From: Thermodesulfobacteriota bacterium
GTDB lineage: Bacteria; Desulfobacterota; Desulfobulbia; Desulfobulbales; SURF-16
Assembly (NCBI GenBank): GCA_049323935.1
Contig: JBMONN010000022.1
Coordinates: 29,890 to 93,889, forward strand
DNA length: 64,000 nt
Direction: 5' to 3'
This document shows positions 4,455 to 23,314 of the stretch, piece after piece. The notes beneath the pieces are model-generated. The model was not told the DNA's origin. It was given only the letters and a program-made list of their open reading frames with translations, and did no database searches. How positions within the stretch are numbered: the first letter of the stretch is position 1; every line of letters starts with the position of its first letter. Position numbers and translations under genes: made by a program.

Positions 4455-4461
4455 AAGCGGT

Positions 4462-5394: not shown

Positions 5395-5425
5395 ATAAGA
5401 ATACTTCTAAAGGAGGAGAGAAAAG

Positions 5426-6223: not shown

Positions 6224-6247
6224 TCGAAGCGCTGATCGGTCGTGCAA

Positions 6248-6292
6248 TGGGGGGGCGGGTCCGGGTAAGGGATCCGTCCCCCCCTTTTTTTT
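6248..6292 (+). terminator. Rho-independent terminator
   Basis: GGGGGGCGGGTCC...GGATCCGTCCCCCC hairpin followed by a T run. Confidence 0.75.
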
Positions 6293-6512
6293 CCTCTTCC
6301 ACCGTCCCCGCTGGTATCTTTCTTCTGCTGGCAGGCATGCCAATCATAAAAAAAGTGACGACCGGTGGCAATAACTGCTTGTTTCCGGCGGCAGCCGTGG
6401 TAATGATCATCCCCGGTGGCGGAGAGTTCGGATCTACTGCCGCCGGTCGGCATGGGGCCGGCAGCGGCGGCAACGGCCCGATCGCCACACAGAGGGGGGA
6501 AAGAGAGCTGCC

Positions 6513-7967
6513 ATGGAGACCTTACGGCACACAACGACAATAAGAAGACGCATGAACCTGCTCAATGTTCTTGTCTTCATCTTCATCGCCTTTCTGATCG
6601 TCGCTTATACTCTGCAGTTTTATTCCATGGAGAAAAATCTGCTTATCCTTGAGGATTTTCATGATCTCTTCGACAACGTGCTTGAGGTGCGGCGCTATGA
6701 AAAGAATTATCTGCTCGGGGTCGGTTCCGAGAACATCGATACCATTCTCGACTATCTCGACACCATCGATGAGGACATCGACCGCCAGGAGGACAATATC
6801 GTCCGACTGACCGGCCGAGAACGGCTGGGGAACTTTCGAACCATTGTCGATGAATACCGTGCCATCTTTGCCGGTTCCCATTCCCCCGGCCCCGAGGATG
6901 CGGAGCGCATGCAGATCGACGAGGTGAGCGTACGCGCCAAGGGCATGGAGATGGTGGAATTCACCAAAGTGCTGCTTGACGACAAGCAGAAAAGCATCCG
7001 CAACAGTCTGAAACTGACGATCATCGGTTTTGTTGTCCTCACCGGTGATTTTTTCTTTTTCATCATCGTCGGCATGTATTATCAGGCGAAAAGCGTTCTC
7101 GACCGGATCGCCTTTGTCCAACAGGCGACCCGCAACGTTCTCAAGGGTAATTTCGAGCCGATCATCTGTGCCAATGACAAGCAGGACGAAATCACCGACC
7201 TGATTGACGCCTTCAACAAGATGGCCTCCGAACTTGAGAGCCGGCAGGAACAGCTCATTCAATCTCGCAAACTGGCCTCCATCGGCACCTTCTCCTCGGG
7301 CATCGCCCACGAATTGAACAACCCCCTCAATAACATCTCCCTGTCGGCCGATACCCTGCTGGAGGAGTATTCGTCCCTTTCCGAGGAAGAGGTTCGGGAG
7401 ATTCTGACCGATATCATTACCCAGACCGATCGCGCCACCGAGGTGGTCAGAAATCTGCTCGATTTTTCCCGGGATAATCCGCCATCCACCAAACCGCTGC
7501 ATGTCAAGCAGATCGTCGCCGCAACCCGCAAACTGATCGCCAACGAGCTGCGCCTCAAGGCCATCTGGCTGGAGGATTACATCCCTGATGATCTGCCCCT
7601 CCTCATGGGCGACATGCATAAGCTTCAGCAGGTCTTTCTCAACCTGTTCGTCAATTCGATTTATGTCATGCCGGAAGGCGGTCTGATCCATATCGATGCC
7701 CGTCAGGAGCCGGCCGGATATGTGAGAATCAATGTCAGCGACACCGGCAGCGGCATCGCACCGGAGAAGGTGGGGCATATTTTCGATCCGTTTTTCACCA
7801 CCAAGGAGGTGGGGAAGGGGACCGGACTCGGTCTTTCCATTGTCTATGGCATCGTCAAAAAACATGGCGGCTATATCGAGGTAAAGAGTAAAATCAATGT
7901 CGGCACCATGTTTTCCATCTATCTGCCGATGGCGTCGGATGCCGGGCCACAATCGTTGCCGGCATGA
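6513..7967 (+). CDS. Membrane sensor histidine kinase (HAMP, HisKA, HATPase)
   Basis: Two TM helices, HAMP, AHELNNPL, NLFVN, DTGSGI, FFTTK, GTGLGL. Confidence 0.95.
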   Translation: METLRHTTTIRRRMNLLNVLVFIFIAFLIVAYTLQFYSMEKNLLILEDFHDLFDNVLEVRRYEKNYLLGVGSENIDTILDYLDTIDEDIDRQEDNIVRLTGRERLGNFRTIVDEYRAIFAGSHSPGPEDAERMQIDEVSVRAKGMEMVEFTKVLLDDKQKSIRNSLKLTIIGFVVLTGDFFFFIIVGMYYQAKSVLDRIAFVQQATRNVLKGNFEPIICANDKQDEITDLIDAFNKMASELESRQEQLIQSRKLASIGTFSSGIAHELNNPLNNISLSADTLLEEYSSLSEEEVREILTDIITQTDRATEVVRNLLDFSRDNPPSTKPLHVKQIVAATRKLIANELRLKAIWLEDYIPDDLPLLMGDMHKLQQVFLNLFVNSIYVMPEGGLIHIDARQEPAGYVRINVSDTGSGIAPEKVGHIFDPFFTTKEVGKGTGLGLSIVYGIVKKHGGYIEVKSKINVGTMFSIYLPMASDAGPQSLPA

Positions 7968-7999
7968 TGGGGCGCACGATTTTTTCGAGGAAAGGACGC

Positions 8000-9382
<1,383 letters not shown>

Positions 9383-9442
9383 TGGGTTGCCTTGGCCCTC
9401 ATTGTTTTCCGCTCTCCCGTTTCCCTCCTTCGCATCCCGGTT

Positions 9443-9621
9443 CTTTTCAATATGAAACACTGCCGGGGTGTCTGCACAACCTCTCTCCCATCCGATCCGA
9501 CCTGGTTTCAGCTGGGCTGTTTCAGTCTGAAACATGGCGGCACGACCACGGTTCCCTCAGGTTCGCCACTTCGCAGAAGTAATCAACAGTTTGTTCTGTG
9601 ATTGCGTTTCAGAATGAAACA
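9443..9621. promoter_or_regulatory. Three candidate enhancer (UAS) palindromes and an IHF consensus site
   Basis: TGTTTCA-N3-TGAAACA perfect at 9518-9534, near-perfect at 9605-9621 and 9443-9459; AATCAAcagtTTG at 9581-9593. Confidence 0.75.
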
Positions 9622-9826
9622 AGCGATCGTGAGCCTGCCGTTGTCTTTTTCAGCCTCTTTTTGGGAAAATTGCCTAATTTCAATAAGATAGTATGGTGTC
9701 CGCAATGAGGTCCGCTGGCCGCCGGTTCAGCTAGGTCTAGCACCGGAAACGGCCAGTGTTCTGTCGTTATTTTTTTTGTGTCATAATTATCTGAAATTTC
9801 AAAGATTATTTTCATTTTTTTTCATC

Positions 9827-9842
9827 TGGCATCACCTTTGCT
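9827..9842 (+). promoter_or_regulatory. Sigma54 -24/-12 promoter
   Basis: TGGCATCACCTTTGCT, GG-N10-GC spacing, ~90 bp upstream of ATG 9934 and downstream of an NtrC-type gene. Confidence 0.85.
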
Positions 9843-9933
9843 CAAAGGGGGAGGCAAAAGTCAGCCGGATGGTCCGGCGCAAAGGCAAGATGACAGAAGG
9901 GCATCAGCACCCCGGAAAAAGGAGAGAGGAACA

Positions 9934-10866
9934 ATGTGGCATATGTATCTTCCCATCGCGGGAAACAGTGTGAACATCCTGACCATATTCGGTCTGGGAG
10001 GTTTTGTCGGATTACTATCCGGCATTTTTGGTGTTGGCGGCGGGTTTCTCATGACCCCGCTGCTCATGATGTTCGGTATCCCGGCCACCGTGGCGGCCGC
10101 CTCGGATTCCAATCAGATCGTCGGGGCCTCGACTTCGGGAACCCTGGCCCACTGGCGGCTCGGTAATGTCGATGTCAAGATGGGACTGCTGCTGCTCGTC
10201 GGCGGCCTCGTCGGCGGCACCCTGGGGGTGCAGATCATCAAGGTGCTGCGCGCCATGGGTAATGCCGATTTTCTCATCAGCGTCACCTACGTCGTCATGC
10301 TGGGCGGGGTCGGTTCTTATATGTTCATTGAGAGTCTGCAGGCGCTGAAAAAAGATAAGACCGTTGTCACCGAGGAGAGGCCGGTGGTGAAAAAGGAATC
10401 GGGTTACGCCCGGCTGATGAAAAAACTGCCGCTGCAGAGCCGGTTCGAAAAATCCGGGGTGGAGACATCCATGCTGGTGCCGCTCTTTTTCGGAACCATG
10501 GTCGGTGTCCTGGCCGCAATCATGGGGGTCGGTGGCGGTTTCATCATGGTGCCGGTCATGGTCTATCTGCTGCGGATGCCGATGCATGTCGTTGTCGGCA
10601 CCAGTCTGTTCCAGATTCTTTTTACCTGCGTCAACGTCACCATCATGCAGGCCAAAAGCAATCACACCGTTGATTTCATCCTGGCCGTCCTGCTCTTGCT
10701 CGGCTCCACCATCGGCGCCCAGGTCGGCACCAAGGTCAGCAAAAAACTCAAGGGAGACCAGTTAAAGATCCTGCTGGCCAGTCTGGTGCTGCTGGTCTGC
10801 GTCAAGATGCTGGCCGGATTGCTGTTGCCCCCGGACTTTATGATCGCCATGAAAGGAGGACACTGA
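9934..10866 (+). CDS. TauE/SafE (TSUP) family membrane protein
   Basis: Two GVGGGF repeats, MPMHVVVGTSLFQ, about 8 TM helices; start MWHMYLPIAG after an RBS. Confidence 0.9.
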   Translation: MWHMYLPIAGNSVNILTIFGLGGFVGLLSGIFGVGGGFLMTPLLMMFGIPATVAAASDSNQIVGASTSGTLAHWRLGNVDVKMGLLLLVGGLVGGTLGVQIIKVLRAMGNADFLISVTYVVMLGGVGSYMFIESLQALKKDKTVVTEERPVVKKESGYARLMKKLPLQSRFEKSGVETSMLVPLFFGTMVGVLAAIMGVGGGFIMVPVMVYLLRMPMHVVVGTSLFQILFTCVNVTIMQAKSNHTVDFILAVLLLLGSTIGAQVGTKVSKKLKGDQLKILLASLVLLVCVKMLAGLLLPPDFMIAMKGGH

Positions 10867-10867
10867 C

Positions 10868-11632
10868 ATGAAGAAACCATTTTTCCTGATCATTCTGATA
10901 ACCCTGGCTTTATGTGGGACGCTGACAAAGCAGGCGGCAGCCGAGGTCACCGTCAATCTGGAACCTGCCGCCATCCAGATCGGTACCTTCTATAACGGAA
11001 CGACGGTGCATGTCAGCGGTATGATTCCGGCCCGGACCGAAGCGGTGGTGCGCGTCAGCGGTGAAGGCGAGGAGCTGCATCTGAAGAAAAAAGGGAAGGT
11101 CGGCGGCCTGCTGTGGATGAACACCGGCGATATCACCCTGGAAAACGCTCCCATGGTCTACCTGGTGTTCACGGCGACGAAGCTCAATGACATCGATCAC
11201 TCAGCGGCCAGGGATTTCGGCTTTGCCGCACTGCAGAACCGGATCGCGATAGAGCCCGGCTCCAAGGAAAATAATTTTCTGCTGCGCGAGTTTATCCGGT
11301 TCAAGGAACATGAAAGCCTTTATGCAGCTAAACCGGACAGTGTTACCTACGGCAGGGAAGAGAACGGCATGAAGAGCTATCAGGTGGATATGAGCATTCC
11401 GCCTGGCATGAAACAGGGAACCTACACGGTCGAGGTCGCGGCGGTGGGAGAGGGCGGCATCAACGCCATTGCCTCCACGCCACTGAATCTGAGCCAGGTC
11501 AGACTGCCGGCGCAGCTGTCGAATCTGGCATTTGGCCATAGTCTCTGGTATGGCGTCATGTCGGTCTTCATCGCGGTTATGGCCGGACTGGTCATGGGAA
11601 CCCTCTTCAAAGGCAAGGGGGGAGCGCACTGA
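10868..11632 (+). CDS. TIGR02186-like membrane-anchored protein
   Basis: Signal peptide, LKKKGKVGGLLWMN, C-terminal TM ending GGAH; usual downstream partner of this TauE subfamily. Confidence 0.8.
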   Translation: MKKPFFLIILITLALCGTLTKQAAAEVTVNLEPAAIQIGTFYNGTTVHVSGMIPARTEAVVRVSGEGEELHLKKKGKVGGLLWMNTGDITLENAPMVYLVFTATKLNDIDHSAARDFGFAALQNRIAIEPGSKENNFLLREFIRFKEHESLYAAKPDSVTYGREENGMKSYQVDMSIPPGMKQGTYTVEVAAVGEGGINAIASTPLNLSQVRLPAQLSNLAFGHSLWYGVMSVFIAVMAGLVMGTLFKGKGGAH

Positions 11633-11700
11633 TCCACAGGCGCCAATGCCGCGGTGGCATTGGCGGTGACAATAGCGTGGGCGGCAAGAATGGGTGAGAA

Positions 11701-14271
11701 ATGCCGATGAAAAAGGCTCTGGCAAAAATGCTGGGTATACTGGGGCGAACAGGCGGGGAAAGGGTCACCGTGCCCTTTCCCGTTCTGTTTGCCCGGTTTC
11801 AGGAGATTCTTGCCCTGAATAACCGGATCCTGGAGCTGATTGCCGGGGCCAATGATACCCTTGGCGGTGATTATGTCTTTGACCGGCATTACATTGACAC
11901 CACTTGCCAGCAGATCACGGAGCTGACACTCACCCTGACCCACAACCTCGATGCCATGGCACCGGGGAAATATCAAGACCTGCACAAAGCTTTTCACCGG
12001 ATCAAAAGCGACATTGATAGGGATCTGGCGGGCCGGCCCCATTGTCCGATCGTTGATTTAGTCCTGTCCTACCGGGAAATCGGACGTGACGCCGCCGAGA
12101 CCGTTGGCGGCAAGAATGCCAGTCTGGCGGAATTGCGCAACTTCCTCGATCTCCGCGTTCCCAGCGGGTTTGCCGTTACCGCCGCCTCCTATCATGCCTT
12201 TATGGAACAGAACGGGCTGCGGGAACAGATCGACGGACTGCTCAGCGCCTGGCGGCAAGACCGGCTCAGCCTTGCCGCAACCTCCGCCGCCATTCGCAAG
12301 GCCATTCTGGCAAGTCCGTTGCCGACGGTGGTGGAAAAGGCGATAACAGGAGCGGTGTCCCGGCTCAGGGAAGGCGGCGACAAACCTCTTTTTCTGGCTG
12401 TGCGCAGCAGCGGCTGGGGCGAGGATGGCGAACGCAGCTTCGCCGGCCAGTTTCACACCGCCCTGCAGGTTCCGGAAGAGCGGGTGGGGCATGCCTATCG
12501 TGAGGTGGTGGCCAGCGCCTTCCGGGAAAACGCCCTTGCCTACCGACGGGAAATCGGTTTTGACGAGGCGGAGTTTGTCATGGCGGTGGGCTGTCAGCGC
12601 ATGGTTGATGCGGTGGCGAGCGGTGTTGTCTATACCCTTGATCCAGGCAACGAACAGGCGGGCGCGATGATGATCGGCGCTACCTGGGGGCTCGGCGCTC
12701 CCTTGGTGGCCGGCCGGGCCGGTGCCGATCGCTTCCTGGTTGACCGGCGACCTCCTTATGCCATTCTGGCCGTGGAGCTGGTCCGCAAGGAAGCGGCGCT
12801 GATCCCGGCCGGCGGGAGGGGGGCGGTGATGATGGCGGTGGAGGATGAGCGCCAGACCGGTTCGAGTCTGACTGACGGCCAGATCAGGCAACTGGCTGAT
12901 GTCGGCAAGCTGATCGAGAATTACTTCAGAAAGCCCCAGGATATCGAATTTGCCTTTGATCAGGAGGGAGAGCTGATTATTCTCCAGGCCCGGCCGTTAG
13001 GGGTCAGAACGGCGACTGTCCCCCGGGCGGCCGAACTGTCCCGCCTGCTTGCCCGTTTTCCGGTGCTTTTGCGGAACCAGGGAGCGGTGGCCCAGAAAGG
13101 GATTGCCAGCGGCCCGGTCTACCTGCTCCGGGATGAGGAGAGGCTCGACGACTGTGCCGCCGGCGTCGTCCTGGTGGCACGCTTTGCCTCGCCCCTTCTT
13201 GCCAGGGTCATCGCCAGGGTCGGCGCCATTATCACCGACGTCGGTTCGACCACCGGCCATCTGGCCACAATTGCCAGGGAGTTCCGGGTTCCCTGCATCG
13301 TCAATACCGGCAATGCCACCGCCCTGCTGGCGGATGGCCAGGAGGTCACCGTCGATGCCGAGGAAAATATCGTCTACCAGGGCAGGATCGAAGAACTCCG
13401 TCTGTATGGCCTGACCGAGGAATTTATCGAGGAGACCGCCGAATACCGGCTTTTGCGGCGGGTGCTGAAACATATTGCCCCCCTCAATCTGCTCGAACCC
13501 TCAGCCGGTAACTTCAGACCGGCCGCCTGCCGTACCCTCCATGATATTGTTCGTTTCGTGCATGAAAAGGCGGTGGAGGAACTGATCGAACGAAATTATC
13601 TGCATACCCGCCACGATGCCGTCGCCACCGTCAGACTGCGGTGGAAGATTCCACTCGATCTGGTGCTGATCGATGTCGGCAACGGACTGCGGTCCGTTGG
13701 CTGGAATGATCTGGTGGGGCCGGAGGCAATCGTGTCGCTGCCGATGAAATTTTTACTCAAGGGACTGGCCCACCCGCGGGCCTGGGACAGTGAGCCGCTG
13801 TCGGTGGATCTAGGCAGTTTCATGGCCAGTCTAACCAGAACCTTTTCTCCCGAACTCTCCTCACCCCGGCAGGTGGGGATGAATCTGGCGGTCATTTCGG
13901 AAAATTACGCCAATGTCAGTCTGCGGCTTGGTTATCATTTCACCATGATCGACAGCTATGTATCGAAGAACATCAACGATAATTACGCCTATTTCCGTTT
14001 CTTCGGCGGCGTCACCGATGCCACCCGCCGCGCCCGCCGGGTTCGGCTGCTCGGCGAAATTCTCGGCCGCCATGATTTCCGGGTCGAGGTCCGCGGCGAC
14101 CTGGTGGTGGCCAGGGTGAAAAAGGTCGATCAAGACGGGATGGCGCGACGTCTGCTGCTGCTCGGCCAGCTGGTCGGGTTCACCCGGCAGCTCGATGTTC
14201 GTTTGATGACGGACCGACACATTGATGACTATATCGAAACATTCAATCAGCTTTACGAGGTGACCCCATGA
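11701..14271 (+). CDS. PEP-synthase/PPDK-like protein 1 (ATP-grasp + His swivel + uncharacterised C-terminal domain)
   Basis: VGGKNASL, AVRSS..ED..SFAGQF, QDIEFA..LQARP, GSTTGHLATIARE; no recognisable pyruvate-binding TIM barrel. Confidence 0.88.
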   Translation: MPMKKALAKMLGILGRTGGERVTVPFPVLFARFQEILALNNRILELIAGANDTLGGDYVFDRHYIDTTCQQITELTLTLTHNLDAMAPGKYQDLHKAFHRIKSDIDRDLAGRPHCPIVDLVLSYREIGRDAAETVGGKNASLAELRNFLDLRVPSGFAVTAASYHAFMEQNGLREQIDGLLSAWRQDRLSLAATSAAIRKAILASPLPTVVEKAITGAVSRLREGGDKPLFLAVRSSGWGEDGERSFAGQFHTALQVPEERVGHAYREVVASAFRENALAYRREIGFDEAEFVMAVGCQRMVDAVASGVVYTLDPGNEQAGAMMIGATWGLGAPLVAGRAGADRFLVDRRPPYAILAVELVRKEAALIPAGGRGAVMMAVEDERQTGSSLTDGQIRQLADVGKLIENYFRKPQDIEFAFDQEGELIILQARPLGVRTATVPRAAELSRLLARFPVLLRNQGAVAQKGIASGPVYLLRDEERLDDCAAGVVLVARFASPLLARVIARVGAIITDVGSTTGHLATIAREFRVPCIVNTGNATALLADGQEVTVDAEENIVYQGRIEELRLYGLTEEFIEETAEYRLLRRVLKHIAPLNLLEPSAGNFRPAACRTLHDIVRFVHEKAVEELIERNYLHTRHDAVATVRLRWKIPLDLVLIDVGNGLRSVGWNDLVGPEAIVSLPMKFLLKGLAHPRAWDSEPLSVDLGSFMASLTRTFSPELSSPRQVGMNLAVISENYANVSLRLGYHFTMIDSYVSKNINDNYAYFRFFGGVTDATRRARRVRLLGEILGRHDFRVEVRGDLVVARVKKVDQDGMARRLLLLGQLVGFTRQLDVRLMTDRHIDDYIETFNQLYEVTP

Positions 14272-14693
14272 ACGCCCAGCAGCGGACCAGTATCCTCATT
14301 CTTGATGACGAGCCCATTGTCAGCAAGCGACTCAAACCCTCCCTGCAGAAAAAGGGCTACGAGGTGGAGACGTTTACCAGCAGCATGGAGGCCCTCCAGC
14401 GGACCCGGCAACGTGATTTCGATATTGTCATTACCGATCTGAAAATGGAGGGGCTTGATGGCATGGAATTTCTAATCGAGGTCAAGAAAAAGGCGCCTGA
14501 CACCGTGGTAATTGTCATTACCGGTTTTGCCACCATGGAAACGGCCAGAAAATCCTTTCAGCAGGGGGTGTTCGATTTTCTCGCCAAACCCTTCAAGCTC
14601 GGCGAGATCAGTGAAGTCATCGCCAGAGCTGAATTGAAAATGAAAGCCGGCCGGCCGGCCGGATCGACGGCGGACGATGCCCTACATCCTTAA
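14268..14693 (+). CDS. Stand-alone receiver domain protein
   Basis: ILDDE, ITDLKM, ITGF, AKPF; ATGA overlap with the upstream gene. Confidence 0.92.
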   Translation: MNAQQRTSILILDDEPIVSKRLKPSLQKKGYEVETFTSSMEALQRTRQRDFDIVITDLKMEGLDGMEFLIEVKKKAPDTVVIVITGFATMETARKSFQQGVFDFLAKPFKLGEISEVIARAELKMKAGRPAGSTADDALHP

Positions 14694-14714
14694 CAACCAG
14701 AGAAGGTGGACGCA

Positions 14715-15515
14715 ATGATCAAAGGTCTTCTGGCCGTGGATGAAAATCTGGCATCGAGCATGGCCTTGCGCTTTGCCGCCCGGCTGACGGAAATTCTGCC
14801 GTTGCGGCTGCAGGCCGGTCATGTTGAACCGCTGCCGACGCAGCAGGAAATCGGATCGGACCGAGTGCGGCCTATTTGGAAAGAAGGGGTGGTCGATGCC
14901 GGTCACCAGGCGATACAACGGTTGTTTAATACGGAAAAGGTGAAGTGTCCCTTTCTCGGCCGGCCGAAGGTGTTTGTCGGTAATCGGGACGAGGTATTTC
15001 TCCGCGAGCTCGTCAACGGTGCTTATGACCTCTTTCTCGAAGGCTATCTCGACACCGGCAGCGCCCGGGATTTTCACCGGCTGATTACCTCGCCGCTCTA
15101 TGTTGAATCTCCCTGCCCCATTCTAATGGTAAAAAACCTGGTCGGTGGTCGGCATGTCGCCTTGCTCTGCCCGGATGAGGACATAGAGCAGCGGGCCGCC
15201 GTTTTCGCCGCCGTTCGCCGTTTGCTGGCCGGTGACGGATTTGATTTTGAATTTCTCTCGTATCGCTACGAGGAAAATCATTGCGCCGTCTTTCCTGAAC
15301 AAAGCGGAACGGACAGTGCTTTGTGCGGGGCTGTGTCCCTGATCGGCGCAGAGGGCAGATCGCCGGCACGGAGCCGGGTGATCTGCGGCCCCCCGGAAAA
15401 GGTTGCGGATTTACTGCAACAATACAAGCTGGTGGTTTGCCCCTTGCCGTACGCCAATGGGCCGCAACTGGAGCTTCTTGCCCATTGCCCTTCACCGGTT
15501 TTGTTCTGCCGCTGA
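14715..15515 (+). CDS. Tandem universal-stress-protein-like protein
   Basis: LLAVDEN N-terminus and two SPCPILMV / CPSPVLF-type domain ends. Confidence 0.6.
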   Translation: MIKGLLAVDENLASSMALRFAARLTEILPLRLQAGHVEPLPTQQEIGSDRVRPIWKEGVVDAGHQAIQRLFNTEKVKCPFLGRPKVFVGNRDEVFLRELVNGAYDLFLEGYLDTGSARDFHRLITSPLYVESPCPILMVKNLVGGRHVALLCPDEDIEQRAAVFAAVRRLLAGDGFDFEFLSYRYEENHCAVFPEQSGTDSALCGAVSLIGAEGRSPARSRVICGPPEKVADLLQQYKLVVCPLPYANGPQLELLAHCPSPVLFCR

Positions 15516-15639
15516 TGATGAAATCGCAAAAGTCTTTTTTTGCCACAAAGGTACTGAGAGCACAGAGAAAAAATATTGAATTGCAATTAGTTATCTCCGA
15601 GAGCTCTGTGGTTAAATTTTAGCTTTGGCGTAATTGTCA
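15516..15639 (+). repeat. Family-A element, copy 2
   Basis: TGATGAAATCGCAAAAGTC...CACAGAGAAAA...TTGCAATTAGTTA...CTCTGTGGT; begins right after a stop codon and ends at the next RBS. Confidence 0.85.
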
Positions 15640-15651
15640 AAGGAGAATGGT

Positions 15652-16527
15652 ATGAAAATTCTCGCGGTATGTGACGATCATCCTACCAGTGAACGGATCG
15701 TTGCCGAGCTGGCCCATATCGCCGCCAACACCTGGGCTGATGTCATCATGCTGGGGGTTCAGCAGCCCGGCAATGGCAATGAACCTGATCCCGCTCTGGC
15801 AAGCCGTTTGCTAAGATGCCGGGACAACTTCATTCGGTTTTTTCCCGCCACTGAGTCACCTTATGGCCCCTGTCGAATATCCGATGCCTTTGTGTCGTTT
15901 GGTCGGGGACGTTGGCTCCTTGCCCCTGCTGAAAGAAAGGGTGAGAGCAGGAAAAAACTCACGGTGCGGATTCGTGCCGGCAATCCTGTCAGAGAAATTC
16001 TCTCGGAAAGCCGTTTGCAGGAGGTTGATCTTATTATCCTTGGCTGTTCCCTGGCAGGTGACTGCCGGTGGCTGGGCGGTGATCTGCGCCGGAAAATAGC
16101 ATCCCGGGCCGGATGTGCCGTCCTCGTCATCAGGGATTTGGGACAACCACCCGGTTCCATCAGTTGTTTTGTCGGACAGGGTCCGGTCAGCCAGGCATCC
16201 CTGGAAATGATCAATCAGATCGCAACAGTACATCAGACCGATCTGTCCCTGGTCGGTTTGGTCGGTAACGAGCTATCCGCCGCCGGCGAGGAAAGGATCA
16301 CCCAGCGGATGGCCGGCATGCTGCGCTACTACGCGCAACGACGGATCCCCGCCTGGATCAGACTTGCGCTGCCGGAAAACGTGGAGGAAGATGTGCGGAG
16401 GGCCGGTCGCGACGGAATAATTGCCTTGTTGTTGGGGAAAAAATCGCTATTCGGTGGAATTTTCCCCGATGATCTTATCGGCCGGCTGGTCAGCGGCGGC
16501 CAACCGGCGGTGCTTATTCTCCGCTGA
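15652..16527 (+). CDS. Tandem universal-stress-protein-like protein
   Basis: MKILAVCD, GNPVREIL..DLIILG, AGCAVLVIR, final PAVLILR. Confidence 0.75.
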   Translation: MKILAVCDDHPTSERIVAELAHIAANTWADVIMLGVQQPGNGNEPDPALASRLLRCRDNFIRFFPATESPYGPCRISDAFVSFGRGRWLLAPAERKGESRKKLTVRIRAGNPVREILSESRLQEVDLIILGCSLAGDCRWLGGDLRRKIASRAGCAVLVIRDLGQPPGSISCFVGQGPVSQASLEMINQIATVHQTDLSLVGLVGNELSAAGEERITQRMAGMLRYYAQRRIPAWIRLALPENVEEDVRRAGRDGIIALLLGKKSLFGGIFPDDLIGRLVSGGQPAVLILR

Positions 16528-16610
16528 GGGGGGGCGAGGCAGGTCTTGACCATTTTCGCAAATTGGGGCAGAGTATTCCTGCCTCATATCGGCCACAGGG
16601 AGGAGATTTC

Positions 16611-17276
16611 GTGAGAGCAGCGGAAAAAGGCAAGATCTTTGCGATTGGTGACATCCACGGCTGCTATGCCAGGCTGTGCGATCTCCTTGACCGTCTTCCT
16701 TATGCCGCTGGCCGTGACCGTCTCGTCTTTCTCGGGGATTATATCAACCGCGGCGAAGAGTCGGCCCGGGTGCTCGATCTGCTCTGCCGGCTGCGCCAGC
16801 AGGATCCGGGCATGGTCGCCCTGTTCGGCAACCACGAGTATCTGCTGCTCGAATATCAGCGCAGCGGCGATCCGACCCTGCTTCCTTATCTGCGCACGAT
16901 GGGACTGGAGGCGACCCTGACCAGTTACCCTGGCGGGGCAGATGGCAATCTCCGTTCCCCGGATTTCCTCCCCCCCGATCATCAGGCCTTTCTGCACTCC
17001 CTCCTTCCCTACTGGGAAACCGACGGCTACATTTTCGTTCATGCCGGACTGGAGCCCGGTATCCCCCTGGCCGACAACGACCTCTCCTCCCTGTGCGAGG
17101 TGCGTGATGTCTTTTTCGAGACGGAATATGACTTCGGCAAAAAGGTGATTTTCGGTCATACCCCCTTTGAGTTGCCGTTCGTTACCCCAACGAGAATCGG
17201 CATCGATACCGGCGCCGTCTACGGCAATCTGCTCACCGCCATCGAGCTGCCGGGCGAAAATTTTTATCACGCCTGA
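16611..17276 (+). CDS. PPP-family metallophosphoesterase (Ser/Thr phosphatase-like)
   Basis: GDIHG, GDYINRG, GNHE, HAG, GHTP, IDTG; GTG start after AGGAG. Confidence 0.92.
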   Translation: MRAAEKGKIFAIGDIHGCYARLCDLLDRLPYAAGRDRLVFLGDYINRGEESARVLDLLCRLRQQDPGMVALFGNHEYLLLEYQRSGDPTLLPYLRTMGLEATLTSYPGGADGNLRSPDFLPPDHQAFLHSLLPYWETDGYIFVHAGLEPGIPLADNDLSSLCEVRDVFFETEYDFGKKVIFGHTPFELPFVTPTRIGIDTGAVYGNLLTAIELPGENFYHA

Positions 17277-19879
17277 GGCGCTGTCCTGATCTCTTGCCGC
17301 TGCAATTGTTCCAGCCGGTAATCCTCCTGGAGGAAGGCCTGTGCCACTCGGCTCACCAGCTCGTCGTCGGCCATGACCGCATCGAGCAGCCGCGAGAATC
17401 CGAGCAGGCGCCCGATTATGGTGAGTTTTTCTTCCAGCACCTCGGCCGCGCCGCCCTGAATGGCAGCGGTCAGCAGGTCGTCACGCAGATCGCAGTAGAA
17501 GCCGGAGACGCCGAGGATTTCGGCCAGGCAGCGGACCCGCCGGCTACGCTGGGCAAGGGAGGTGCCGCCGCCTTTGAAGCGGAATTTGATGTAGTTGAGC
17601 CGGGCGTCCAGGCCACAGATGGCATCGACCATGGTAAAGTGAAAATCCATCCGGGCATTGAGGTTGAGAAAGTCGCGGGTCACCAGGGCATAGTTGGGCA
17701 GGCCGACCGGCCGGGCCGACCGGTGATCGGTCAGGAAACGGGAGACCACCGAGCCGACCGCCACCCCGCCCGCCGGACCCCAGTTGATCTCCGGCGTCAT
17801 CACGCCCTGCCAGAGGGCGATGAAGGGTTGTGACAAGACCTGGGCCGGAGTGACCCGTTTGGCGGCGTCGGGCACCAGGCCGCCGCCCAGATCGATGAGG
17901 GAGACGAAAAAGGGGATCTCGCTGTCGAGGTGGACGATGGCGCCGCCGGCCTCTTCCACGGTTTCGTCTCCTGCGGCGAACATGGCGAGCACCGCCTTTT
18001 CATGAGCGTAGCGGACCATGTCGTGGATGGTGCGGCACTCGGCGATGGAAAAGGTAGGCCCGTAGGCATCCGTCAGGTTCAGCGGCACGATTCGGTCGTA
18101 GAGGGCGGCGGCCACCGGATCGCTCGGTCGGCTGGCGCGCTCCTGCCAGCTCGCGTTTTTTTGGCGGTGGCGTTGCAGATGCCGTTGCGTTTCCTCCGTG
18201 GTGGCGGCAAAGACCATGCCGCGGTCGCCGTCCACCAGGACCATGGTATCGCTTGGCAGGTCGGCGCTGCCCTGGCCGAGACCGGTCAGCATGGGAACTT
18301 CATATTCCCGTGCCACGCAGGAGAGATGATCGGCCGGATTGCCGAGATCGACCAGCAGGGCGGCGGTCTGGCGCAGCGCACCCACCGCCTCCACCAGACT
18401 CTGGTGCATGACCAGCACATAGGGCGGATCGGTCAGGTTGTCGAGATCTCGGCGGTTGGTGACCCGGCGGACCCGGCCGACGCCCCGGCCCGGCATGGCG
18501 GTCTGGCCGCCAGTCAACAGCGGCTTCCGCGCCGTGGGGTCCTGCGGTCCCACGCGACCAGCCATCACTTTGAGGGGGCGGGCCTGCAGCAGGACAATGC
18601 GTCCCTCGCTATTTACTGCCCATTCGATATCCTGGGTGGAGCCCAGCCTCTCCTCTACCGCCAGTCCCAGTTTGGCCAGGGTCATGATTTCCGCATCGGT
18701 CAGCACGGGCTGTCCTGCCTCGTCTCCGGCAAGCTGCTCCTCGATTACCCCACCGTCGGCGGCGGCAACCAGCCGGCGGCTTTTGGTCGCCACCATCTTT
18801 CCGCCCGGACCGGAGCCGTCGCGCCGCGGACGGTAGACATCGGCAGCCTCGCCGCCGCTCACGGCCAGTTCCCCCAGTCCGTGTACCGCGGTGATCAGCA
18901 TGGCGCCGCTGGCCGGGGCATTGGGATCCCGGGTGAAGAGAATGCCGGCCGAGCGGACATCCACCATCTCCACGCAGAGGATGGCCAGATCGAATTCGTG
19001 GGGGGGCAGACCGGCGTGATGGCGATAGGCGAGATTACGAAGCCCGAAAGCGCTCGCCACCACCTGTTTCACCGCCTCCTCCAGCTGGTGCTCATTGACG
19101 ACATTGAGCACGGAACGGTACTGGCCGGCAAAGGAATGAGCGACGCTGTCCTCACCCACCGCGCTGCTGCGTACCGCCAGCCCTTTGCCCTGCCGGAAAA
19201 AGGGGGCGGCGGCCCGACTCAGGGCCTCGCGCACTTTGTCGGCCAGCGGGGTGGCCATGATCTGCCGCTGCACCTCGTCAGCCGCGTCCTGCTCAGGCAG
19301 TCCGTCGCTTCTTTTCGCCCCGCTACGCAGTCTGGCGACAATGCGGAGATACAGTCCGTCCTGGTCGAGAAACTGTCGGCAAACGGAAACCGGTAGCACG
19401 AAGCCGGACGGCACGGCAAAGTGGGAAATGCGCCGCAGGCGGGCTAGATTGGCGGACTTGCCACCGACGTTGCGCAGCATGTCCGGGGTGATCTCGTCAA
19501 GGGAAATGCAGGAATGGCGCTGGTCATCGACAGGGAGCAGGGCCAGATCTTTTCTGATGGACGCGGCCAGATGAGCCTGGCGTAGGGTCAGGCCGGCGGA
19601 GTCACCGACGGTGAGGCGTTCAAGCTTGTGGACAAGATCCGCGCTGGTCGCCAGCAGCTCTTCCGTGCCGACGCGCAAAGTCCTGGACCAGAAGAAGGAG
19701 GAACGCAGGGCGGAAGCCAGTTCGGTGATGAGCTCGACGGCCCGGTGATTATCATCCAGCAGGGTGCGGAAGATCTGATAGCGGGAGCGCAGACGGTGAA
19801 GCTGGGCCTCCCGCCGTTCGTGGGTGTGGCGGCGCCAGCTGCCAAGGGGATGAAAAAGCCAGTCGCGCAGGCGGATCAT
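17267..19879 (-). CDS. PEP-synthase/PPDK-like protein 3
   Basis: VGGKSANL, AVRSSAVGED..SFAGQY, QDIEWA..LQARP, GNPADHLSCVARE; same C-terminal domain as protein 1. Confidence 0.88.
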   Translation of the reverse strand: MIRLRDWLFHPLGSWRRHTHERREAQLHRLRSRYQIFRTLLDDNHRAVELITELASALRSSFFWSRTLRVGTEELLATSADLVHKLERLTVGDSAGLTLRQAHLAASIRKDLALLPVDDQRHSCISLDEITPDMLRNVGGKSANLARLRRISHFAVPSGFVLPVSVCRQFLDQDGLYLRIVARLRSGAKRSDGLPEQDAADEVQRQIMATPLADKVREALSRAAAPFFRQGKGLAVRSSAVGEDSVAHSFAGQYRSVLNVVNEHQLEEAVKQVVASAFGLRNLAYRHHAGLPPHEFDLAILCVEMVDVRSAGILFTRDPNAPASGAMLITAVHGLGELAVSGGEAADVYRPRRDGSGPGGKMVATKSRRLVAAADGGVIEEQLAGDEAGQPVLTDAEIMTLAKLGLAVEERLGSTQDIEWAVNSEGRIVLLQARPLKVMAGRVGPQDPTARKPLLTGGQTAMPGRGVGRVRRVTNRRDLDNLTDPPYVLVMHQSLVEAVGALRQTAALLVDLGNPADHLSCVAREYEVPMLTGLGQGSADLPSDTMVLVDGDRGMVFAATTEETQRHLQRHRQKNASWQERASRPSDPVAAALYDRIVPLNLTDAYGPTFSIAECRTIHDMVRYAHEKAVLAMFAAGDETVEEAGGAIVHLDSEIPFFVSLIDLGGGLVPDAAKRVTPAQVLSQPFIALWQGVMTPEINWGPAGGVAVGSVVSRFLTDHRSARPVGLPNYALVTRDFLNLNARMDFHFTMVDAICGLDARLNYIKFRFKGGGTSLAQRSRRVRCLAEILGVSGFYCDLRDDLLTAAIQGGAAEVLEEKLTIIGRLLGFSRLLDAVMADDELVSRVAQAFLQEDYRLEQLQRQEIRTAPQA

Positions 19880-22437
19880 GGTTTGCTAGCGCCCTCTTGC
19901 TGTTCGTGGCGAATACGCTGGAGGAAATCGGCGAAAAAGCGGTCGATCGCCTCGTCGTCGGCCATTTTGACATCGAGCTGGCGGGTGAAGGCAATCAGTT
20001 CACCCAACCGGACGAGAATGGCTTCCAGATGGGCCGCTTCGAGCATCTTGGCCTTGCCCTGGACCAGATCCCCTTTGATCTCAACCTTGAATTGCATGCC
20101 GGTCAGCACCTGGCCGATCAGGCGGGCTCGGCGGCGGCGTTTATTCGCTTCGGCGAAACCGCCGAGGAAGCGGAAGTAGGCATAATTGTCCTCCGCCTCG
20201 GCCGACAGGTAACTGTCGATGATGTTGAAGTGATAACCGAGCCGCAGGCTGAGATTGCAGTAAGAGTCGGCGATAATGGCCAAATTTTCCCCGCTGTAGG
20301 GCGGGGCGTTGGTCAGCATGGAGAGGGGGTTGCTGAGCCCGGCGAGGAAGTCGCGGAAACCGAAGGGCGCCGGTTCCCGGCTCCAGGCGTCCGGCCGCAG
20401 CATGCCACGCAGCAGGGCGCGGAAGGGGCGACTTCGTACCTGGTCAGAGGCCACCGTGGTCTGCGCCGGCGCAATGAGCCCATCCCCCACGTCGAGAATC
20501 CTGATTTTGAGCGGGATGTCGGCCGTCAGTAGCGGGGCGTTGCGGTCCGCTGTCATCCGGCTCGAGGTGTGAAAGCCGATCAGTTCGGCCACCGCCTTTT
20601 CGTGGCAGAAACGGAGGACGTCGTGGATGGTGCGGCAGCCTTCCATCCGGAAGTCGGAGGAGGCCGGATTAATCAGATGGAGTGGGGCGATGAGGCGCAG
20701 CAGGCGGCGCAGCAGGCGGCTTTCCTTGTCATCGAGCAGAGATTCGAATGCCCCGCTCTGATGGAGATCCGGCGGCAGCTCGACCGTGCCGGCATAAATG
20801 GTGCGCTCCTCCACGTCAACGGTGATGGCCATACCGTCGGTGAGCAGCGCAGTGGCCTGTTCCACGCCGAACAGGGCCGGGGTCCGGTATTCCCTGGTAA
20901 CGGTGGCCAGATGACCGGTAGGGCTGCCGATGTCGGTGATGATCGCCCCGGCACGGCGGACGATTTCAGCAAGCCCGGGGCTGGCGAAGTGGCTGACGGC
21001 AATGGCGCCGACCGGGAAGCACTCTGCCGGCGTGCCATCGTTTACCTGCATGACCGGGCCGCTGGCAAGTCCCATGTGGCAGATAGAACCGCGGTCGGCA
21101 AGCAGCACCGGCAGGGTGGCAAGTTCCGCGCTGATCGTTGCCGGCGGTCGGGGAGAAGCGCCGCCAGAGAGCAGACGGAGGGGGCGGGACTGGAGAATCC
21201 AGAGGTGGCCGTGCTGATCGAGACTCCACTCGATATCCTGGGGTGACTCGAAATGCTTTTCCAGAATGATGCCGTATTCGGCAAGCTGGCGGAGCTGGGC
21301 AAGCCGGGCAATGGCAGAACCGCGCCGCAGGCGGCCATCGACCGGGGCGGTTGGTTTGCTGTCGTCATCCGCCGCCAGCGGCCGATGTCCGGCAATGGTG
21401 CTTGCCGTGAGGGTAAAGGGGTGGGTGCGGCGCAGCAGGTAGCGGTCGCCGCTGTCGAGACCGGCAACGAGTTGGTCACCCATGCCGCTTATTGCCGAGA
21501 TGACCATGACATCAGCATCCGGATGGTTGGGGTCACGGGTATAGAGCACACCGCTGACCCGTGGGCTGAGCATGGGCTGCACCAGCACCGCCATGGGGGC
21601 TTCCTCGGCCGGCGTCGCTGGGTCGAGGTAACGCAGCACCCGTTCGGAAAAACGGGAGGCCATGACCGTGAGGCAGGCCGCCGCCACCTCGTCTGCGGCA
21701 ACGTCGAGCAGTGATTGAAACTGGCCGGCAAAGCTGCGCTCCCCGTCTTCTTCCATGCCGCTGCTGCGAACGGCGAAACGTTCCGGCGCCGCCGGGCCGC
21801 GGCGCAGCTCTTTCACCGCCCTGGCGATCGCTTTTGCGAGGTCCGCGGGCAGGCGGGTCGAGGCAAACAGCGCGTTGATTTTTTTCGCCCGTTCAGCGCC
21901 ATCGGCGGTCTGCCTCAGGATGTGGTTGCAACGGACGAAGAGGTCGTTTGCTTCCATTAAGCGGCGATAGCCGGTGGTACTCACCACGAAACCGCCGGGC
22001 ACCGGCAGGGCAAGACTGTTTGTTACCTCGCCGAGGCATGCGCCCTTGCCGCCGGCCAGATGGCGGAGATCGCGGTGGAGGGTGTCCCAGCCCAGTACCA
22101 GTTGCGCCCCGTATGGACCGGCGCCGCCGGCCAGAATGTCGGCCAGATGATCGGCGATAATGGTGAGCTGATCGTAGAGTTTCTGATACCGGTCGCCGGT
22201 CATGGCGTTGAGGTTGTAGATGACCTGCCGTCCCTTTTCGACAATGGCGTTCACCGAGGTCTGAAGAAAGGTGCGGTCATAGACATAGTCGCCGCCCAGC
22301 ACCCGCTCCAGGTCGGCGATCATTTCCAGAATGCGGTTGTTGGTGGTAACGATGCGGCGGAAGTGGCCGAAGAGGGCGACAAAGGCGTCGGCGGCTGTGG
22401 TATTGCCGGTTTTGCTCAAGGGCCAGAGAGGGCTCAT
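19876..22437 (-). CDS. PEP-synthase/PPDK-like protein 2
   Basis: AGGKGACL, AVRSSGMEED..SFAGQF, GSPTGHLATVTRE, NLSLRLGYHF; 4-bp overlap with protein 3. Confidence 0.88.
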   Translation of the reverse strand: MSPLWPLSKTGNTTAADAFVALFGHFRRIVTTNNRILEMIADLERVLGGDYVYDRTFLQTSVNAIVEKGRQVIYNLNAMTGDRYQKLYDQLTIIADHLADILAGGAGPYGAQLVLGWDTLHRDLRHLAGGKGACLGEVTNSLALPVPGGFVVSTTGYRRLMEANDLFVRCNHILRQTADGAERAKKINALFASTRLPADLAKAIARAVKELRRGPAAPERFAVRSSGMEEDGERSFAGQFQSLLDVAADEVAAACLTVMASRFSERVLRYLDPATPAEEAPMAVLVQPMLSPRVSGVLYTRDPNHPDADVMVISAISGMGDQLVAGLDSGDRYLLRRTHPFTLTASTIAGHRPLAADDDSKPTAPVDGRLRRGSAIARLAQLRQLAEYGIILEKHFESPQDIEWSLDQHGHLWILQSRPLRLLSGGASPRPPATISAELATLPVLLADRGSICHMGLASGPVMQVNDGTPAECFPVGAIAVSHFASPGLAEIVRRAGAIITDIGSPTGHLATVTREYRTPALFGVEQATALLTDGMAITVDVEERTIYAGTVELPPDLHQSGAFESLLDDKESRLLRRLLRLIAPLHLINPASSDFRMEGCRTIHDVLRFCHEKAVAELIGFHTSSRMTADRNAPLLTADIPLKIRILDVGDGLIAPAQTTVASDQVRSRPFRALLRGMLRPDAWSREPAPFGFRDFLAGLSNPLSMLTNAPPYSGENLAIIADSYCNLSLRLGYHFNIIDSYLSAEAEDNYAYFRFLGGFAEANKRRRRARLIGQVLTGMQFKVEIKGDLVQGKAKMLEAAHLEAILVRLGELIAFTRQLDVKMADDEAIDRFFADFLQRIRHEQQEGASKP

Positions 22438-22558
22438 TGCCGCTCCTTGTCGCAGGGGGGAAAGGAAGCTCGTTGTGCAGAAAAAAGTCAGATTCGGGCC
22501 GAACCGGATTTTCGCACGAAAAAACCAGCAAAAAATCCGCCCCGAATAGGTGAGGTCA

Positions 22559-22587
22559 ATGATATTCAGTCAGGAACGATTAGACAA
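22559..22587 (-). promoter_or_regulatory. Candidate sigma70 promoter for proteins 2 and 3
   Basis: TTGTCT-N17-TATCAT on the minus strand, ~120 bp upstream of ATG 22437. Confidence 0.5.
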
Positions 22588-22646
22588 GGGAAATTGCCTG
22601 GAAATATCTCGGATTACCGAAAAAACGCCCCGGGCAGACAGAATCG

Positions 22647-22870
22647 TTACCCGATTGCCAGATTGCCGGTCGCCTGATCCGCCACCCGGCGGACATCGGC
22701 CAGGCATCAGCGGCCCTTGGGGTTCTTTTCGGCGCAGCGGCAGGAGCCCGTTCTTTTCTCCGCCGCGATCCATTCGAGGATGGTCGAGCGACCGTGGCGG
22801 CGGACATCTTCGCGGATATCGTCGCGCGTATAGCCGAAACAGTAACAGATGAGCGGATTGTCGGCGTTTG

Positions 22871-22874
<4 letters not shown>
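22647..22874 (-). CDS. BFD-like/CopZ-N-terminal-like [2Fe-2S] selenoprotein, 75 aa, Sec56
   Basis: MTNADNPLICYCFGYTRDDIREDVRRHGRSTILEWIAAEKRTGSCRCAEKNPKGR-U-CLADVRRVADQATGNLAIG; UGA at 22709-22707 replaces the first Cys of NPxGxCC; ATG overlaps the arsC stop. Confidence 0.88.
22672..22706 (-). promoter_or_regulatory. Bacterial SECIS element
   Basis: Directly after the UGA: GCCUG/CAGGC lower stem, UCCGCC-GGGU-GGCGGA upper stem; the G-led loop starts 19 nt after the UGA. Confidence 0.8.

Positions 22875-23304
<430 letters not shown>

Positions 23305-23314
<10 letters not shown>

Follow-up and report, generated by a model that had tools for sequence, protein, structure and literature searches.

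A PEP-synthase-like dikinase family without the pyruvate barrel, linked to a stand-alone receiver and a TauE/TIGR02186 transporter in Thermodesulfobacteriota

What might a protein built like phosphoenolpyruvate (PEP) synthase do once its pyruvate barrel is gone and its gene overlaps that of a stand-alone receiver? The question is raised by positions 6513-22437 of a 64,000-nucleotide stretch of DNA from a Thermodesulfobacteriota bacterium (assembly GCA_049323935.1, contig JBMONN010000022.1, positions 29,890 to 93,889; hereafter the window), where three such dikinases, DK1, DK2 and DK3, are encoded together with a TauE-type transporter, a TIGR02186-like membrane protein, a receiver and a phosphatase. 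A first-pass annotation of the window had proposed that they are not PEP synthases but non-canonical histidine kinases or small-molecule kinases serving the transporter, with DK2 and DK3 as a possible heteromer. The present analysis bears out the exclusion of PEP synthase and the conserved linkage to the transporter. The suggested role of DK1 as kinase of the receiver fared less well, and we tentatively favour a model in which the receiver, phosphorylated by a conventional histidine kinase (HK), would switch DK1.

Dikinases without a pyruvate barrel

The three paralogues, each of about 860 amino acids, share the parts that had been described for them, namely a helical N-terminal extension, an ATP-grasp domain, a swivel motif and a set of C-terminal motifs. 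In DK1 (856 amino acids) these form a three-helix N-domain (residues 1 to ~120), the ATP-grasp (133-439), the His swivel (487-555, with His520) and a C-domain (~570-856). Pfam assigns PPDK_N (PF01326, 207-276 bits) and PEP-utilizers (PF00391, 36-65 bits) to each of DK1-DK3 and no other family; the PEP-utilizers_C barrel (PF02896) was not found in any of them at E<=0.01, as the annotation had expected, and the isolated DK1 C-domain (the last 287 residues) matched no Pfam family even at E<=1. When the C-domain was compared with the barrel of the genome's own PEP synthase, the hhalign probability was 0.3%. The NCBIfam PEP-synthase models (TIGR01418 and NF005057) aligned only to model position ~467 of 798, and DK1 stayed under the PEP-synthase equivalog cut-offs (337 against 598 bits and 314 against 739.75), with DK2 and DK3 scoring lower. 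Sequence matches in the PDB were confined to residues 117-566 of DK1, the best PDB and NCBIfam matches being PEP synthases. Neither HisKA/DHp nor HATPase_c nor HPt was found in DK1-DK3 with Pfam; HisKA and HATPase_c sit in a separate HK encoded at 6513-7967.

A canonical PEP synthase (816 amino acids, PPDK_N and PEP-utilizers_C) is encoded on another contig of the same genome, which holds four copies of the C-domain: those of DK1-DK3 and that of DK4, which lies outside the contig of the window. Over ATP-grasp and swivel, DK1 has 130 of 439 positions in common with this PEP synthase. The motifs GGK, VRSS..ED..FAGQ, QDIEW..LQARP and the swivel G..T.H....RE align between the true PEP synthase and DK1-DK4; in PPDK and PEP synthase these segments are known to make up the nucleotide and phosphohistidine sites. 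An Enzyme I-like protein is also encoded on another contig, and two more open reading frames (ORFs) with PPDK_N (878 and 1434 amino acids, on contigs C1, locus L093, and C37, locus L094) are without the C-domain. Because the barrel is replaced by a domain that has no Pfam match, shows no likeness to a barrel by hhalign and is modelled as a non-barrel fold, and because a canonical PEP synthase is present elsewhere in the genome, DK1-DK3 are, as judged from sequences and models, not PEP synthases.

The motifs HDxxRxxHEKAV, GYHF/DFHF, NYxxFRFxGG and RxLD can be read in the C-domain and aligned across DK1-DK3; the swivels carry GSTTGH in DK1, GNPADH in DK3 and GSPTGH in DK2, and the two paralogues are 32% and 41% identical to DK1. 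An AlphaFold2 model of the C-domain, built on a 45-row alignment (pLDDT 85, pTM 0.77), has helices packed on antiparallel sheets and not a (beta-alpha)8 barrel. With this confident alpha/beta model of the last ~290 residues, Foldseek found nothing in the PDB at E<=0.001 (best 1e-2, TM 0.13). In an exhaustive VIA-align search of 48,161 chains the top match was coproporphyrinogen oxidase (Z 6.4, 127 aligned residues, root-mean-square deviation 4.6), a score that the tool counts as noise, and TIM barrels were absent from the 50 best rows. The C-domain may deserve a Pfam family of its own and perhaps represents a new fold, fold searches of this kind giving no proof of newness. The ~120-residue N-terminal extension was modelled as a three-helix bundle (pLDDT 80.9), for which Foldseek returned nothing at E<=0.001 and generic helical bundles only.

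Searched alone, the C-domain gave 1142 representative clusters at E<=0.001 and 875 at 1e-10, mostly of ~850 amino acids with the domain at the same place. All of the 120 best homologues from a second search (470-1498 amino acids) carry PF00391 and PF01326 and no other Pfam family, and they are entered in their sources as pyruvate, water dikinase, PEP-utilizing enzyme, PEP/pyruvate-binding domain protein or hypothetical protein. The domain was found in 152 of 401 evenly sampled genomes of the phylum (126 of 340 of good quality, 86 of 254 by genus), often in several copies per genome, and the nearest clusters in the ESM Atlas belong to Thermodesulfobacteriota. In a tree of 107 members rooted on the genome's true PEP synthase, 72 members fall in the DK1 clade (support 0.94), 15 in a DK2-type clade (0.975) and 12 in the DK3 clade (0.98), whose members retain a distinctive GNPxDHLxC swivel motif. 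His520, R526 and E527 are conserved in all 107 members, as are H614, D615, H621, E622 and H746 of the C-domain, while R780 and D832 are conserved in 106. To judge from this pattern, the C-domain residues have the look of a site for catalysis or ligand binding, more than of a surface that serves dimerisation alone. The domain remains joined to a swivel in representatives P0007 and P0015, where PEP-utilizers is also matched, and in P0037 and P0100 (~400 amino acids), where the swivel motif is readable. One short representative among the 11 members of the C-domain alignment also matches Peptidase_S9 (6.5e-11) and may be a chimeric or mis-assembled metagenome protein. Literature searches returned no description of this dikinase family or of a dikinase-receiver relay, and TIGR02186, Alph_Pro_TM and PF09608 were not found in the literature searched; the accessible main text of Rajeev 2011 (PMC3333781) is silent on these genes.

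PEP synthase (PpsA; pyruvate, water dikinase) shares the N-terminal ATP-grasp and, after it, the central His swivel; it has a TIM barrel, whereas the dikinases lack the barrel and add the three-helix N-domain and the new C-domain. Rifampin phosphotransferase (RPH), PigC/RedH, phenylphosphate synthase and HpeHI-type dikinases likewise use an ATP-grasp and a swivel His, on non-pyruvate acceptors, and their NCBIfam models match the ATP-grasp of the dikinases in part. The dikinases score far under the membership cut-offs of RPH (229 against 999) and PigC (201 against 1300), and the DK1 swivel is central (487-555 of 856), unlike that of RPH and PigC, which is described in the published text at hand as C-terminal, with the substrate domain in the centre (PMC4844700). 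VadK (Rv1127c), a mycobacterial barrel-less relative of PPDK, shares with the dikinases the ATP-grasp and swivel His without a barrel. VadK is ~490 amino acids long, has no third domain and belongs to the PPDK branch, whereas the dikinases are 853-870 amino acids long, belong to the PEP-synthase branch and have extra N- and C-domains; unlike VadK, they show linkage to phosphatases, TauE and a receiver. PRK05878, the NCBIfam model of short PPDKs, which we take to stand for the VadK type, scores 79 bits against a cut-off of 456, well outside that group. For VadK, the available part of the report describes autophosphorylation of the swivel His that depends on Mg-ATP, and a regulatory role exerted by way of protein contacts is proposed there (PMC13400623).

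Two further systems resemble the dikinases in function more than in build. Hybrid HKs are ATP-using autokinases coupled, and sometimes C-terminally fused, to a receiver, as DK1 might be if its autokinase role is granted by analogy; they have HisKA/DHp, HATPase_c or HPt, which the dikinases lack. In Enzyme I of the phosphotransferase system (PTS), a PEP-utilizers swivel His, weakly matched by the dikinase swivels, phosphorylates a protein, HPr, in the service of transport; Enzyme I differs in being charged by PEP in a TIM barrel and in having no ATP-grasp. On sequence grounds, DK1-DK3 are filed as an uncharacterised branch of the His-swivel dikinase superfamily, with a new putative acceptor domain and a dedicated receiver partner.

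Conserved linkage to a transporter and a receiver

The genes and elements of the cluster are as follows.

6513-7967, plus strand: membrane sensor HK, HAMP-HisKA-HATPase_c (Pfam).
7964-9382, plus strand: sigma54-dependent response regulator, REC-AAA+-HTH_8 (Pfam, NCBIfam); 4-nt overlap with the HK gene.
9445-9457, 9520-9532 and 9607-9619, no strand: three TTTCA-N3-TGAAA palindromes, candidate sites of the sigma54 activator (sequence reading).
9827-9842, plus strand: sigma54 -24/-12-like element TGGCATCACCTTTGCT directly 5' of TauE (pattern and position).
9838-10866, plus strand: TauE/SafE (TSUP) membrane transporter (PF01925, 171 bits, profile matched over 1-237 of 237).
10868-11632, plus strand: Alph_Pro_TM/TIGR02186-like membrane protein, hereafter the TM protein (PF09608, 136.6 bits against a cut-off of 24.5; TIGR02186, 54 bits against the higher NCBIfam cut-off of 255.25).
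11701-14271, plus strand: DK1, 856 amino acids, PEP-synthase-like dikinase (PPDK_N 276 bits, PEP-utilizers 65 bits).
14268-14693, plus strand: stand-alone receiver, 141 amino acids (Response_reg 100.6 bits); ATGA overlap with DK1.
14706-15515, plus strand: USPa, divergent tandem USP-like protein (profile matches).
15634-16527, plus strand: USPb, tandem USP-like protein (Pfam Usp, 34.4 bits against a cut-off of 24).
16563-17276, plus strand: PPP-family metallophosphatase, ApaH/PrpA-like (Metallophos, 58 bits against a cut-off of 21.5).
17267-19879, minus strand: DK3, 870 amino acids, GNPxDH-swivel subfamily (PPDK_N 234 bits, PEP-utilizers 36 bits).
19876-22437, minus strand: DK2, 853 amino acids, ATGA-coupled to DK3 (PPDK_N 207 bits, PEP-utilizers 52 bits).

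The layout agrees with what had been annotated: ATGA overlaps couple DK1 to the receiver and DK2 to DK3, two USP-like genes and the PPP phosphatase follow the receiver, and DK3 converges on the phosphatase with a 10-nt overlap of their coordinates. The gap between the sigma54 regulator and TauE is 455 nt.

Related loci were the best 80 of 592 confirmed genomic matches to the DK1 C-domain, taken with 10-kb flanks, onto which the window proteins were mapped by tblastn; L071 was excluded, having no dikinase match with coverage of at least 45%, and adjacency was counted only in loci with enough flanking DNA. TauE lies 5' of the dikinase in 63 of 69 of these loci, the TM protein directly 5' in 67 of 74, and the receiver no more than 400 bp 3' in 67 of 76; the arrangement recurs in dozens of genomes and is not chance. 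In the phylum sample of 401 genomes, the C-domain is present in 80 of the 83 with PF09608, 72 have the C-domain alone and 246 have neither. Because adjacency is conserved, the two families co-occur across genomes and the dikinase is in places fused to the receiver (see below), a functional tie of the dikinases to TauE/TIGR02186 and to the receiver is supported at the sequence level, in keeping with the transporter link drawn in the first-pass annotation.

Two-component genes are frequent upstream. Of the 43 loci with full flanks, 39 have an HK and 29 a sigma54 regulator. Positions were counted in the 53 loci that extend 4.2 kb or more beyond TauE on its 5' side: the HK-regulator pair lies 5' of TauE on the same strand in 26 and divergently in 8, and in 12 the HK stands directly 5' of TauE without an intervening regulator, 10 of these having no detected sigma54 regulator in the locus. 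Two receivers follow DK1 in tandem in L055, L056, L068, L070, L072, L074, L076 and L078, most of which have the HK directly 5' of TauE with no sigma54 regulator in between.

Further 3' the loci diverge. In the 53 with at least 6.8 kb of room, the USP pair alone is found in 22, extra dikinases alone in 17, both in 1 and neither in 13; the window is unusual in holding both the USP pair and the DK2/DK3/PPP module. The PPP phosphatase occurs in 12 loci, all 12 of which have extra dikinases of the DK2/DK3 type. It converges with DK3 in ten of them (L031, L032, L034, L039, L043, L044, L045, L049, L050 and L061) and shares its strand in L054 and L077; a 13th match, in L058, also shares the strand of DK3, and the flanking room there is smaller. 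DK2 and DK3 are, on their sequences and company, two old subfamilies travelling together with the PPP phosphatase. This phosphatase carries GDIHG, GDYINRG and GNHE, which correspond to the PPP-family motifs GDxHG, GDxxDRG and GNHE; its best NCBIfam match, the Ap4A hydrolase ApaH, spans just 75 residues.

A second dikinase locus in the same genome (contig C17, L005, 1434-13439) encodes a PAS HK, a molybdopterin oxidoreductase, a split TauE, DK4, a DSP phosphatase and a sigma54 regulator. Its TauE consists of a 404-amino-acid ORF, with a ~260-residue N-terminal extension that has no Pfam match, and a 129-amino-acid ORF. The DK4-DSP pair also adjoins the main cluster in L044, so that the pairing of a dikinase with TauE, two-component genes and a phosphatase appears as a repeated theme.

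USPb belongs to the USP family (Pfam above cut-off; TeaD match at 1.2e-8). USPa, which has no Pfam match, is a USP by profile only: it matches the USP structure 3fg9 at 1.2e-4 and USPb with an hhalign probability of 96.9%. USPb orthologues have a cysteine-rich pattern (LGC..., C.W, CSVLVV) in place of the glycine motif of ATP-binding USPs, and this pattern hints at a redox-sensitive or non-nucleotide-binding USP. In Desulfovibrio vulgaris an analogous set, DVU0539-0545, comprises two USP proteins along with an HK and a response regulator, a small TM protein and a putative transporter of the sulfate-exporter family, and molybdate-stress phenotypes are reported for it (PMC10102598); by analogy, sulfate reducers may more generally keep USP pairs next to regulated anion carriers.

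On the 5' side of the cluster lie a cation-efflux (CDF) transporter (3477-4673, minus strand) and a beta-class carbonic anhydrase (5426-6223, plus strand), with no sign of belonging to it. Upstream of DK2, at 23305-26053 on the minus strand, a set of arsenic or redox type (DUF2703, an SBF/ACR3-type carrier, a DsbD_TM protein and a thioredoxin) is not conserved beside dikinases in related loci. An Rfam scan of 5000-24000 found no family reaching its gathering score.

The receiver and the fate of the phosphoryl group

Our preferred model is close to an even call as a whole, with doubt slightly the heavier. The cluster would be a conserved, regulated transport module of Thermodesulfobacteriota with TauE, the TIGR02186-like protein, DK1 and the receiver at its core, and this core would usually be governed by a dedicated pair of HK and sigma54 regulator. 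The dikinases would be ATP-driven phosphohistidine enzymes of the PEP-synthase lineage, in which the ATP-grasp charges the histidine of the swivel, His520 in the case of DK1, and the swivel hands the phosphoryl group to a site in the ~290-residue C-domain that stands in for the pyruvate barrel. The operon's HK would phosphorylate both the sigma54 regulator, for transcription of the operon, and the stand-alone receiver; the phosphorylated receiver would bind DK1 and switch its activity, and DK1 would phosphorylate an acceptor tied to TauE/TIGR02186 transport, either cargo or carrier. DK2/DK3 would carry out the same chemistry as an accessory copy, with the dedicated PPP phosphatase undoing their product, and the DSP phosphatase would do so for DK4, elsewhere in the genome. 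VadK offers a precedent for such an enzyme, and the joint rise of TauE, TM protein and 'PEP synthase' in Dissulfuribacter thermophilus (see below) also speaks for this model.

A physical partnership of DK1 and receiver is likely. The receiver belongs to PF00072, and of its pocket residues D13, D14, D57 and K107 are invariant, and T85 is present in at least 90%, of 58 orthologues. A Response_reg domain is fused C-terminally to the C-domain in 3 of 13 representatives chosen for odd length: P0041, complete from N-domain to receiver (987 amino acids), and P0044 and P0046, both N-terminally cut. In L078 the dikinase frame reads through the first receiver, and a second receiver follows. Such fusions are rare (0 of the 120 best homologues, 1 of 80 loci). 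A complex of full DK1 and receiver, modelled with a 58-row alignment for each, scored 0.40 (runs 0.33, 0.43 and 0.40) against 0.00 for the best control, which is rated as weak support. Of 80 solved complexes, 58 reach the score mark, as do 2 of 110 mismatched pairs; at 0.60 or below it is reached by only 7 of the 80 and by both mismatches, counts that hold roughly here, where our own alignments were used. The runs agree in at least 89% of contacts, with a partner pLDDT of at least 73, and no interface was reported.

With regard to what this partnership does, we lean, with hesitation, towards the receiver as a switch of DK1 over phosphorylation of the receiver by DK1, which we consider doubtful. 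The conventional reading would make the HK the phosphodonor: it is present in nearly all loci with full flanks, and in the 10 loci without a detected sigma54 regulator the receiver is its only detected partner.

Several points weigh against this model. No phosphoryl acceptor of DK1 is named in it, and the transfer from the HK to this particular receiver is a step that we infer. Over 35 loci, the alpha-1 helices of the receiver and the sigma54 regulator are identical at a fraction of 0.48, against 0.37 in the rest of the domain, but at only 0.30 over the seven exposed positions, and pairs taken across loci score equally (0.47), so that this comparison speaks neither for nor against a shared kinase. 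In 7 of the 53 loci, neither an HK nor a sigma54 regulator lies within 4 kb upstream. The locus counts are not independent, because the loci are mostly metagenome-assembled genomes related to one another. Receiver-regulated enzymes usually have an N-terminal receiver and hybrid kinases a C-terminal acceptor receiver; in the DK1 fusions the receiver is C-terminal, as in hybrid kinases. DK1 modules have no phosphatase and the paralogues without a receiver (DK2/DK3 and DK4) have one, and phosphatase-free DK1 loci would also fit a labile Asp-phosphate product. Finally, the C-domain has no recognisable fold relatives, its putative role as acceptor site being drawn from position and conservation, and in P0024 (337 amino acids) and P0036 (339 amino acids) it stands without any Pfam family. 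The stretch ahead of it in these two aligns with the last part of the swivel segment and lacks the catalytic His motif. P0024 seems cut at its start, and P0036 begins with M.

The strongest competitor is a dikinase-type phosphorelay, which would make DK1 a counterpart of a hybrid HK on a PEP-synthase chassis: the phosphoryl group would pass from ATP to His520 and from there to the receiver's Asp57, the C-domain serving for docking, and the receiver would in turn act on targets further down the line, for example the transporter or the USP proteins. The adjacent, translationally coupled receiver (67 of 76 loci) would fit such a relay, as would its conserved acceptor pocket and its C-terminal place in the fusions; these fusions are rare, however, and their order follows from the gene order. 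The exposed alpha-1 residues of the receiver are near-invariant across loci and those of the sigma54 regulator vary, as expected of a receiver with a very conserved docking partner; set against this, the canonical HK is present in most operons and is sometimes the receiver's only visible partner. The absence of a phosphatase from DK1 modules, unlike the receiver-free paralogues, and the published part of the VadK work (PMC13400623), in which a barrel-less dikinase is an autokinase with a regulatory role, also speak for a relay. The C-domain, however, does not look receiver-specific, because DK2, DK3 and DK4 keep the same invariant residues without a neighbouring stand-alone receiver. For the annotated role of DK1 as the receiver's kinase, the complex score (0.40 against 0.00) lends weak support, and the lack of a returned interface and the canonical HK in 39 of 43 full loci tell against it. 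To our knowledge no transfer from a swivel His to a receiver Asp is known, and our literature searches found none; we hold the relay to be unlikely for that reason. Were it real, DK1 and the receiver would form a third kind of receiver kinase, in which the ATP beta-phosphate reaches the receiver Asp by way of a swivelling His, at a docking and catalytic domain of a kind not seen before and without HisKA, HATPase_c or HPt, a prospect that we regard with scepticism, and dikinase phosphorelays controlling a TauE-type anion transporter would be widespread in sulfate-reducing and sulfur-disproportionating bacteria.

Less probable still are kinase-phosphatase switches on proteins or polymers, in which the dikinases would place stable phosphates (on Ser, Thr, Tyr, His or a polymer sugar hydroxyl) on the USP proteins or the transporter, with PPP and DSP as erasers and the receiver as one of several inputs. 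Both phosphatases belong to classical protein-phosphatase families, the PPP enzyme is found only beside DK2/DK3-type genes (12 of 12 loci), and DK4 is followed by the DSP phosphatase both in this genome and in L044. The near-exclusive occurrence of the USP pair (22 loci) and the DK2/DK3/PPP module (17 loci) 3' of the receiver, with both in 1 of 53, fits as well, yet the conserved core of TauE, TM protein, DK1 and receiver does without USP or phosphatase. Glucan water dikinase, opposed by the DSP glucan phosphatases SEX4 and LSF2, is a known dikinase/DSP pair acting on a polymer and in this resembles DK4 and its DSP neighbour; domain order and substrate-binding modules differ, and nothing in the cluster points to glucan. 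We know of no swivel-His enzyme that phosphorylates Ser, Thr or Tyr of a protein, and a nucleotide or other small substrate of the PPP phosphatase is equally possible, because its best NCBIfam match is to ApaH over 75 residues only.

The most improbable alternative is a small-molecule dikinase for the transporter cargo (ATP + X + H2O -> AMP + X-P + Pi) that traps or activates a sulfur-containing or other anionic compound moved by TauE/TIGR02186, with no direct role for the receiver: the PEP-synthase domain order with the acceptor domain alone exchanged, the several DK paralogues adjoining TauE paralogues, the NCBIfam relatives whose small acceptor is other than pyruvate (rifamycin phosphotransferase, PigC and RedH) and, from the accessible text on Dissulfuribacter thermophilus, the co-induction of transporter and 'PEP synthase' by thiosulfate (PMC13490349) would suit it, but fusions and strict adjacency argue for direct coupling to the receiver, the dedicated phosphatases beside the paralogues would make futile cycles, and no candidate X is in sight.

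Transcription and significance

In the preferred model, where the receiver would switch DK1, transcription of the operon would fall to the sigma54 regulator, and the region 5' of TauE holds elements of a matching kind. The element TGGCATCACCTTTGCT was called by the -24/-12 consensus. Of 63 related loci, 19 have elements of this type 5' of TauE, and the remaining 1.10 Mb holds 42 when both strands are counted; within the window as a whole the pattern is not enriched (31 found against 33.8 expected). The TTTCA-N3-TGAAA palindromes lie 210-380 nt 5' of the TGGCATCACCTTTGCT element, and this sequence occurs 20 times in 63 TauE-upstream regions of 650 bp against 44 times in the remaining 1.10 Mb of the loci, which makes the palindromes candidate binding sites of the sigma54 activator. 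The TGGCATCACCTTTGCT element overlaps the listed TTG start of TauE, so that the true start is probably further downstream. In many related loci a sigma54-like element lies 360-490 nt 5' of the projected TauE start, a distance at which a long leader or a small unannotated ORF may lie in between.

Published expression data touch on relatives of the cluster. In the available text of a 2026 proteomics study of D. thermophilus during thiosulfate disproportionation, DITHS69_1990 (TauE) rose with a log2 fold change of 1.56, DITHS69_1989, a TM protein that co-occurs with TauE, with 1.79, and DITHS69_1988, named 'PEP synthase', with 3.40; its authors take the induction of the latter as gluconeogenesis (PMC13490349). 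By gene order, DITHS69_1988 may belong to the dikinase family. The induced 'PEP synthase' is DITHS69_1988 in the table and DITHS69_1161 in the text of that report (PMC13490349). For Desulfolithobacter dissulfuricans, the text at hand mentions two USP-like proteins and a response regulator, their locus tags close to one another, that were detected only under thiosulfate disproportionation (PMC9751629); these could not be linked to this operon, and a Desulfolithobacter homologue of DK1 exists (P0225).

Databases label members of this family pyruvate, water dikinase, PEP-utilizing enzyme or hypothetical protein, and if DITHS69_1988 is one of them, the gluconeogenesis reading of this induced TauE neighbour, as given in the accessible text (PMC13490349), is probably wrong. 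The close ties of the dikinases with TauE/TIGR02186, a receiver and phosphatases of protein type suggest that sulfate reducers and sulfur disproportionators control anion transport at a level not yet studied; the transported anion is probably a sulfur compound. The cluster also offers a directly testable case of non-canonical phosphorylation of a receiver, or of control by one.

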